Part shown: one piece after another, positions 33,604 through 33,954 of the stretch | Layout: each line of letters starts with the position of its first letter | Position numbering within the stretch: position 1 is the first letter of the stretch | Virus record (IMG/VR): IMGVR_UViG_2778261231_000002 | Coordinates: 1 to 45,127 of that record | Direction: 5' to 3' (one strand) | DNA from: a virus | Lineage: Duplodnaviria; Heunggongvirae; Uroviricota; Caudoviricetes | DNA: 45,127 nucleotides | The notes under the pieces: model-generated | Told to the model about the DNA's origin: nothing | The model's input: only the letters and a program-made list of their open reading frames with translations | Databases searched by the model: none | Translations under genes and position numbers: made by a program

Positions 33604-33954
33604 ATGAAAAAACTCATCCTGATGATTGCTTGCAGCTCTTTTGTCTTGGCGGGCGTGGCTCATGCTGATTCCCAGTGTGGGCCTTTCCACTTGGGCACGA
33701 GCCCGACAAATGATGGATGGGCACGCATTAACGGTGCGAAGCCTGAAAGTCAGAAGGTAACGTTCCTTAAGCAAAAAGAAGACTACGAGAACATTAAGAT
33801 GGAATGGCGCATGGCTACTGACCAACCCGGCCGCTGGGTTGGGCTTGAGTACATCAAGCGCAACGGCAAAGCCATTCTCAACGCACAGTGGTTGCAAGCC
33901 AGCATGGATGCGCCGCGTCAGTATGCAACATACGACTGCGTGAAGGTGAAATGA
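33604..33954 (+). CDS. secreted small protein with Sec signal peptide
   Basis: MKKLILMIACSSFVLAGVAHA then DSQ; two Cys in mature part. Confidence 0.5.
   Translation: MKKLILMIACSSFVLAGVAHADSQCGPFHLGTSPTNDGWARINGAKPESQKVTFLKQKEDYENIKMEWRMATDQPGRWVGLEYIKRNGKAILNAQWLQASMDAPRQYATYDCVKVK

Follow-up and report, generated by a model that had tools for sequence, protein, structure and literature searches.

A predicted periplasmic protein encoded directly behind the baseplate hub gene of a temperate enterobacterial phage, with a possible role in interference with phage entry

Described envelope-acting phage proteins and the locus studied here

Among the described phage proteins that most resemble the one analyzed here, Spackle (Sp) of phage T4 is a periplasmic inhibitor of the gp5 tail lysozyme and has a helical fold. 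T5 Llp and lambdoid Cor are lipoproteins that block the receptor of their own phage, FhuA, while TP-J34 Ltp and HK97 gp15 act on the incoming tape measure or on DNA entry, the HK97 gp15 gene lying within the tail-gene cluster. To our knowledge, only few soluble periplasmic exclusion factors are known. Here, we describe a gene at positions 33604–33954 of a 45,127-nt stretch of Caudoviricetes DNA (IMG/VR record IMGVR_UViG_2778261231_000002; the whole stretch is referred to as the window), whose product is an uncharacterized protein belonging to the large group of accessory envelope proteins that phages encode.

The window is the genome of a temperate phage, and the region is ~98% identical to a prophage in E. 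coli ECONIH5. The gene lies within the tail module, in the following context:

14770–15987: lysis cassette, consisting of a holin, a probable endolysin and Rz
14770–15093: holin
15550–15987: Rz
29593–31608: tape measure with a C-terminal SLT lytic-transglycosylase domain
31111–31407, plus strand: SLT domain of the tape measure, residues 507–605 (Pfam PF01464, E = 3.4e-24)
31608–32234: Dit-like tube initiator
32231–32536: plug of the Pam3 gp18 type
32539–33600, plus strand: baseplate hub (phrog_196 'baseplate hub', E = 1.7e-82; Pfam E217_GP41 just under its cutoff, 26.7 vs 27 bits)
33604–33954, plus strand: exported-protein coding sequence, 116 aa, stop codon included (from the list of open reading frames; phrog_3443 member with 169 homologues and dN/dS ~0.12)
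33604–33666, plus strand: predicted signal peptide, residues 1–21 (MKKLILMIACSSFVLAGVAHA), with predicted SPase I cleavage after A21 (from the sequence; hydrophobic core and A-x-A)
33667–33951, plus strand: mature protein, 95 aa, 10.9 kDa, pI ~9, predicted eight-stranded up-and-down beta-barrel
33676–33678 and 33937–33939, plus strand: codons of the mature-protein cysteines C25 and C112, both invariant
34019/34037–34450, plus strand: Phd/YefM antitoxin, likely start 34037 (PF02604, E = 1.5e-6, and TIGR01552, both just under their curated cutoffs)
34450–34857, plus strand: Doc toxin (Pfam Fic, E = 1.5e-11; TIGR01550, E = 6e-23)
34880–34906, plus strand: GC-rich hairpin with a T-run, terminator-like, just 5' of the spike ribosome-binding site (terminator scan)
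34916–35656, plus strand: baseplate spike with a gpV-like N-terminal domain and an Apex motif (PF18352, E = 2.6e-41; PF18946, E = 3.5e-8)
35656–36009: 117-aa protein at the sheath-initiator position (no Pfam match for the window copy)
36010–37209: Baseplate_J wedge protein
37170–37886: DUF2612 wedge protein
37868–38644: fibre
39535–40698, minus strand: integrase

Between holin and Rz, a 158-aa open reading frame (15077–15553) occupies the position expected of the endolysin and has no Pfam match. The syntenic counterpart of the 117-aa gene in a metagenomic relative (L106) matches PF10934 Sheath_initiator.

The likeness to T4 Spackle lies in overall design. The window protein would likewise be a small, Sec-exported and soluble periplasmic protein of a contractile-tailed phage, both phages carry a peptidoglycan-cleaving domain at the tail tip, which in the window phage is the SLT domain of the tape measure, and the role that we propose is likewise to block penetration by incoming tails. 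We nevertheless found no similarity in sequence or fold between the two proteins, the window protein being predicted to be all-beta. Moreover, T4 is virulent and its sp gene does not lie beside the T4 baseplate genes, and inhibition of an SLT domain by the window protein is only a candidate activity, which no covariation supports. T5 Llp and Cor resemble the window gene in being envelope-targeted exclusion genes that are fixed companions of adsorption or penetration genes, and the lipoprotein versions that relatives encode in the same slot recall them. However, there is no homology, the window protein is by its sequence predicted to be soluble and not lipidated, and Llp acts on a receptor in the outer membrane, possibly out of reach of a soluble protein in the periplasm. 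Ltp and gp15 are alike in concept, as prophage-encoded envelope proteins that stop DNA injection after adsorption. They differ in fold and membrane topology, and they are morons expressed from the prophage, whereas the window gene has no detected independent promoter and a tail-like GC content. With MliC/PliC, avidins and bacterial lipocalins, the predicted likeness is at the level of fold class only.

The exported protein and its family

The reading frame at 33604–33954 represents a real gene rather than a chance occurrence, as judged by its 169 homologues and by a dN/dS of ~0.12 among close relatives, a value which also indicates that the protein is under purifying selection. An antisense open reading frame (33580–33897, minus strand) was treated as spurious, because conservation and low dN/dS all lie in the plus frame. 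The 116-aa product reads MKKLILMIACSSFVLAGVAHA up to the predicted cleavage point and DSQCG...YDCVKVK beyond it. Its signal features comprise a basic n-region (K2, K3), a hydrophobic core with a best 8-residue Kyte-Doolittle mean of 2.75, and A19-H-A21 ahead of D22 at the cleavage site. By a heuristic check of n-region, h-region and small residues at −3/−1, it is predicted to be a Sec/SPase I-secreted protein. The same arrangement recurs in the homologues, which marks the export signal as a family property and not a product of chance: 112 of 113 full-length sequences have a hydrophobic N-terminus ahead of the conserved Cys, and with few exceptions the cleavage junction reads (A/V/S/C)-x-A and then D-(S/T/Q/G)-Q-C-G. 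Within the family, the signal peptide varies more than any other segment (mean column entropy 2.7 vs 0.85–1.35 in mature segments), as expected of a signal peptide. The best-conserved part of the protein is its C-terminal two-thirds.

We also considered a lipoprotein reading of the motif MIAC (residues 7–10), which would require the lipobox [LVI][ASTVI][GAS]C to close a signal peptide of sufficient length. This reading was rejected, as the hydrophobic stretch comprises only six residues and C10 is not conserved. The precursor contains three cysteines, with C10 inside the signal peptide and C25 and C112 in the mature protein. The latter two are invariant across 69 aligned homologues and presumably form a disulfide in the mature protein.

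An earlier note on this DNA, made from the letters alone, had described a Sec signal cleaved after AHA, two cysteines, and a location between the hub gene and a toxin-antitoxin pair. The signal is borne out by the pattern kept in 112 of the 113 homologues, and the location by family matches on both sides. The count of two cysteines is right for the mature protein (C25, C112) and falls short for the precursor, which has three including C10.

The protein matches phrog_3443, a family of unknown function, with E = 7.2e-46, residues 3–116 aligning to profile positions 3–114 of 115. A search of 5.8 billion proteins returned the 169 homologues, all from Enterobacterales and all ~95–128 aa in length. 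An exhaustive profile search of 1.84 billion cluster representatives returned just 63 clusters, which indicates a narrow family. The few large multi-repeat proteins among these clusters are Listeria-Bacteroides repeat/MucBP surface proteins and were set aside as repeat or composition artefacts. Pfam, NCBIfam and PADLOC contain no family for the exported protein; the sole NCBIfam match, the PhrK pheromone (E = 0.023, residues 1–23), reflects mere signal-peptide resemblance. Public records name family members 'hypothetical protein' or, automatically, 'Secreted protein'. In the literature on SEN34, Brunovirus, ST64B, SfV and periplasmic exclusion, we found no functional or proteomic data on the gene. 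By these sequence searches, phrog_3443 is a narrow, uncharacterized prophage family of Enterobacterales.

In the AlphaFold prediction, the protein folds into an up-and-down beta-barrel of eight strands, of the avidin/calycin type, with the signal peptide appearing in the AF2 model as an N-terminal helix of low pLDDT. A Foldseek comparison returned no specific structural relative, all E-values being >0.1 and identities 5–13% against small periplasmic barrels. A PDB sequence search with the family profile yielded only spurious nanobody matches, which we discarded. Similarly, none of 69 family members matched the MliC/PliC model PF09864, or another Pfam family, at E-values of up to 5, and the family and fold searches connected the protein, by sequence or by fold, to none of the known exclusion proteins or enzyme inhibitors. 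Whatever its function, phrog_3443 is a well-defined orphan family with a confident structure model.

Synteny, composition and allelic diversity of the post-hub slot

Using tblastn, we found the exported protein in 20 records, from temperate or temperate-like phages of Klebsiella, Escherichia, Salmonella (SEN34), Yersinia and Citrobacter, and its gene directly follows the hub in all four annotated records inspected. We further assembled a hub-seeded set of 80 viral contigs with the closest hub genes (84–99% identity), chosen regardless of the exported protein, 77 of which were evaluable, with enough sequence downstream of the hub. The exported domain is encoded by the first gene after the hub in 72 of these 77 loci (94%). 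In ten of the 72, it constitutes the C-terminal part of a 296–299-aa lipoprotein, with a ~190-aa N-terminal domain ahead of it. This fusion form matches phrog_3443 with its C-terminal 99 residues and begins with a lipoprotein signal (e.g., LVSGC), and the ~190-aa domain has no family match. The remaining five loci encode an unrelated ~240-aa lipoprotein (FLTSC or LTGC lipobox) directly after the hub, for which we found no match in Pfam, NCBIfam, PHROGs or PADLOC. True lipoboxes at the slot are confined to the 296-aa fusion forms and these alternative 240-aa proteins. Judged by its encoded signal sequences, the post-hub slot thus specifies an envelope-targeted protein in almost every evaluable relative.

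The fusion lipoproteins occur in L020, L025, L033, L038, L044, L048, L085 and others (~5069–5960), and also in P0123 and P0135; the fusion proteins of L036, L041 and L043 have Gly at the position of the lipobox Cys. The ~240-aa lipoprotein, found in L009, L016 and L028 (5070–5795) and in L083 and L084 (5068–5796), combines a coiled-coil-like N-terminal portion with a C-terminal portion rich in Cys. Two copies of the exported-protein gene (L023, L082) look disrupted.

A reverse search, in which the protein profile was compared with one genome per bacterial species, recovered 20 genome loci. The hub lies upstream in 20/20 and the spike downstream in 18/20, the other two contigs ending ahead of the spike position. 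The exported-protein gene is the only gene between hub and spike in L079, L081, L099 and L106, and a ~35%-identical member (P0128) likewise stands alone there. Altogether, the gene adjoins a hub in each of the 21 loci reached via the protein itself. In more distant modules, the hub-spike junction is empty (Acinetobacter phage AbTJ and Edwardsiella phage ZHS) or holds a non-exported 136-aa protein (Hafnia phage yong1). Burkholderia phage Magia carries in this junction gp21 (L108 3445–3816, minus strand), an unrelated 123-aa signal-peptide protein whose sequence begins with MKKLLLIAALLAPLTAVA, followed after the cleavage site by DD. Exported proteins recur at the hub-spike junction across lineages, in the case of Magia on the opposite strand.

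The ATG of the exported-protein gene lies 3 nt past the hub stop codon and has no obvious Shine-Dalgarno sequence ahead of it. A promoter scan of 2.7 kb, which was consensus-based so that a weak internal promoter could escape it, returned one weak 9/12 match inside the hub gene, ~100 nt upstream (33473–33501), compared with three promoter-like sites on average in shuffled sequence. The terminator scan found no terminator directly after the gene. Its GC content of 51.9% and GC3 of 61.5% are close to those of the hub (54.1% and 64.7%), as opposed to a GC of 45% and a GC3 of 45–50% for Phd/Doc, whose neighbours have a GC of 52–58%. We therefore do not place the gene in the moron class, given that no promoter or terminator of its own was found, its composition is tail-like and its presence is not patchy. 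Several features speak against sporadic conversion cargo: the gene keeps the same position, is linked exclusively to tails of this type, has a native composition and lacks convincing transcription signals of its own. Instead, it behaves as a resident of the tail module, a fixed accessory gene rather than occasional cargo.

The earlier note had not expected an exported protein to be a baseplate component, and this agrees with related structures, the Pam3 baseplate being complete without it and hub and spike being adjacent in AbTJ and ZHS. Its further suggestion of lysogenic-conversion (moron-type) cargo, which it had held to be at odds with an orthologue that occurs in all related tail modules and is detected in virions, fits the data poorly: the orthologue is nearly universal in related tail modules, the domain directly following the hub in 72 of 77 loci and a hub accompanying it in 20 of 20 profile-found loci, GC3 is tail-like, and no convincing promoter of its own was detected.

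The true cargo hotspot is the interval from the exported-protein gene to the hairpin ahead of the spike, which in the window is filled by Phd/Doc. The content of this interval is highly variable across L001–L105, and just 4 of the 80 hub-seeded loci carry Phd/Doc (L007, L055, L061, L078). The hairpin itself precedes the spike in nearly all related loci (L001–L085), whatever cargo lies upstream. We read it as the end of a transcription unit that starts at or before the tape measure, and it resembles the boundary of an operon or else a regulatory hairpin within the tail cluster. For annotation, the pattern of a fixed exported gene followed by a variable cargo slot up to the hairpin indicates where accessory or defence genes should be sought.

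Other contents of the interval include DUF4236 proteins (reverse strand), a protein with a P22-antirepressor N-domain, a set of two genes, the second encoding a weakly HEPN-like protein, additional signal-peptide proteins (e.g., L006 5436–5822 and L018 5420–5740) and many orphans. The hairpin stems differ between loci, with AACCCGC/GCGGGTT, AAACCAGC/GCTGGTTT and AAGCCGC/GCGGCTT as examples. The spacer upstream of Phd/Doc measures 64 nt, or 82 nt if Phd starts at 34037. A 12-nt palindrome, TGTACATGTACA (34015–34026), lies just before this likely start and is a possible operator; a simple scan called no consensus promoter for the pair. A metagenomic relative (L106) has an extra 227-aa gene without a family match between plug and hub (2231–2914), an interval that may be a second insertion point of the module.

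Next, we compared the divergence of the exported protein with that of other tail proteins, using modules whose hubs are at least 84% identical. The mean protein distance was 0.23 for the mature exported protein, as compared to 0.057 for the hub, 0.047 for the N-terminal domain of the spike and 0.046 for the 117-aa protein after the spike; the C-terminal part of the spike is likewise variable (0.28). The exported protein thus diverges four times faster than the hub, and dS is also higher in its gene (1.07 vs 0.43). Together with the dN/dS of 0.12, these dS values suggest old allele classes that were shuffled by recombination. The diversity points to old alleles moved in this way, and not to relaxed or positive selection on one lineage. 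Allele distances showed no correlation with those of the SLT domain, hub, plug, Dit or spike (Spearman rho at most 0.19; SLT 0.14), so that a lock-and-key partner in the phage's own tail is not supported. Overall, the allele pattern fits a specificity or arms-race gene.

Candidate functions

Sec export and SPase I processing would yield a ~95-aa soluble, periplasmic, eight-stranded barrel with a probable C25–C112 disulfide. In the SEN34-like temperate myoviruses of Enterobacterales, the gene would sit last, as a resident, in the transcription unit of tape measure, Dit, plug and hub, its slot being occupied by the soluble barrel, by a barrel tethered behind a lipoprotein domain, or by an unrelated lipoprotein. 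Once in the periplasm, the protein may interfere with entry by incoming contractile-tail phages, that is, mediate superinfection exclusion, which would protect the lysogen or infected cell and would spare progeny a futile ejection. A plausible target would be any part of the arriving tail that becomes exposed in the periplasm, such as the C-terminal SLT domain of its tape measure, or else an envelope factor of the host on which DNA entry depends. The SLT domain would act in the periplasm, and we infer only that it is a plausible candidate for a periplasmic target.

We favor a periplasmic superinfection-exclusion or entry-interference factor because a small, envelope-located protein that is tied to penetration genes and has several deep alleles presents the pattern of an entry blocker. 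We hold this reading tentatively, as possible rather than probable. We found no experiment or published work on the function, and no link in sequence or fold to known exclusion proteins or inhibitors. Furthermore, allele type shows no covariation with any of the tail components compared (rho at most 0.19), and exclusion in a lysogen requires expression from a repressed prophage, for which no convincing promoter was found. A more specific version, to which we give little credence, is a tail-module-linked periplasmic 'gatekeeper', in which a secreted and sometimes lipid-anchored barrel would neutralize the penetration apparatus of incoming contractile tails, in the manner of Spackle and with an independent origin in temperate enterobacterial myoviruses. 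The target would then be the tape-measure lytic transglycosylase or the spike/hub tip, and several old specificity alleles would have been exchanged by recombination.

The strict synteny between two baseplate genes and the tight coupling to the hub gene could also indicate a virion or tail-assembly component, whose hydrophobic N-terminus would serve in membrane insertion or assembly and would not be a signal that is cleaved off. The cryo-EM baseplate of cyanophage Pam3 is built entirely from gp17–gp24, with the genes of hub gp19 and spike gp20 adjacent (PMC9942802). Each of these eight proteins pairs with a single gene product of the window (Dit, plug, hub, spike, sheath initiator, the two wedge proteins and the fibre), and among the resolved components of the minimal baseplate of the Pam3/E217 type, there is no counterpart of the exported protein; the AbTJ and ZHS baseplates likewise have none. 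In addition, the A-x-A motif and a cysteine pair suited to the oxidizing periplasm are conserved, lipobox fusion forms exist, an unrelated lipoprotein can take the same place, and the protein diverges four times as much as the hub and covaries with no tail protein. Export, lipoprotein variants, lipoprotein substitution, absence from homologous baseplates and the lack of covariation with the tail together make a structural or baseplate role very unlikely, and the membrane-insertion or assembly variant highly improbable. A benefit to the host unrelated to phage entry, carried as lysogenic-conversion cargo, is in our view doubtful. Such a periplasmic protein could be an inhibitor of, or immunity factor against, lysozymes, peptidoglycan-degrading bacteriocins or T6SS effectors, or a calycin-type binder of small ligands, and this reading draws on the adjoining and obviously accessory Phd/Doc pair, on the cargo hotspot at the junction and on the unrelated, opposite-strand signal-peptide protein that Magia has there. 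However, a gene of general host benefit would be expected elsewhere too, whereas every recovered locus has the hub upstream; the gene is present in 94% of close modules, its GC content is tail-like with no convincing promoter or terminator of its own, and even at E up to 5 there is no match to MliC/PliC or another Pfam family.

The start 3 nt past the hub stop in a late tail operon, the lack of a convincing promoter of its own and a conservation like that of a phage-cycle gene would also suit a protein that is produced late, together with the tail proteins, and assists lysis or release from within the periplasm while giving the lysogen no protection. It could modify the wall or outer membrane late in infection, or stop progeny from ejecting into debris; a comparable second role has been suggested for T5 Llp. 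Yet the genome has a full set of holin, probable endolysin and Rz elsewhere (14770–15987), and with this complete lysis cassette a role in lysis itself is unneeded and was discarded. The gene is also dispensable in 6% of close relatives, which have the unrelated lipoprotein instead, and absent from more distant modules, and a lysis helper with a housekeeping role would not be expected to show deep allelic diversity. We regard a late helper as distinctly unlikely.

Prophages with such tails are common in E. coli, Salmonella, Klebsiella, Enterobacter, Serratia and relatives. If the exclusion reading is true, the protein would explain part of the resistance of lysogens to related phages, would be relevant to the choice of phages in therapy, and would extend the soluble periplasmic exclusion factors by one whose several natural alleles lend themselves to comparison. 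Within the tape measure, the middle region (residues 301–480) is more variable among relatives than the SLT part (mean distance 0.18 vs 0.07).
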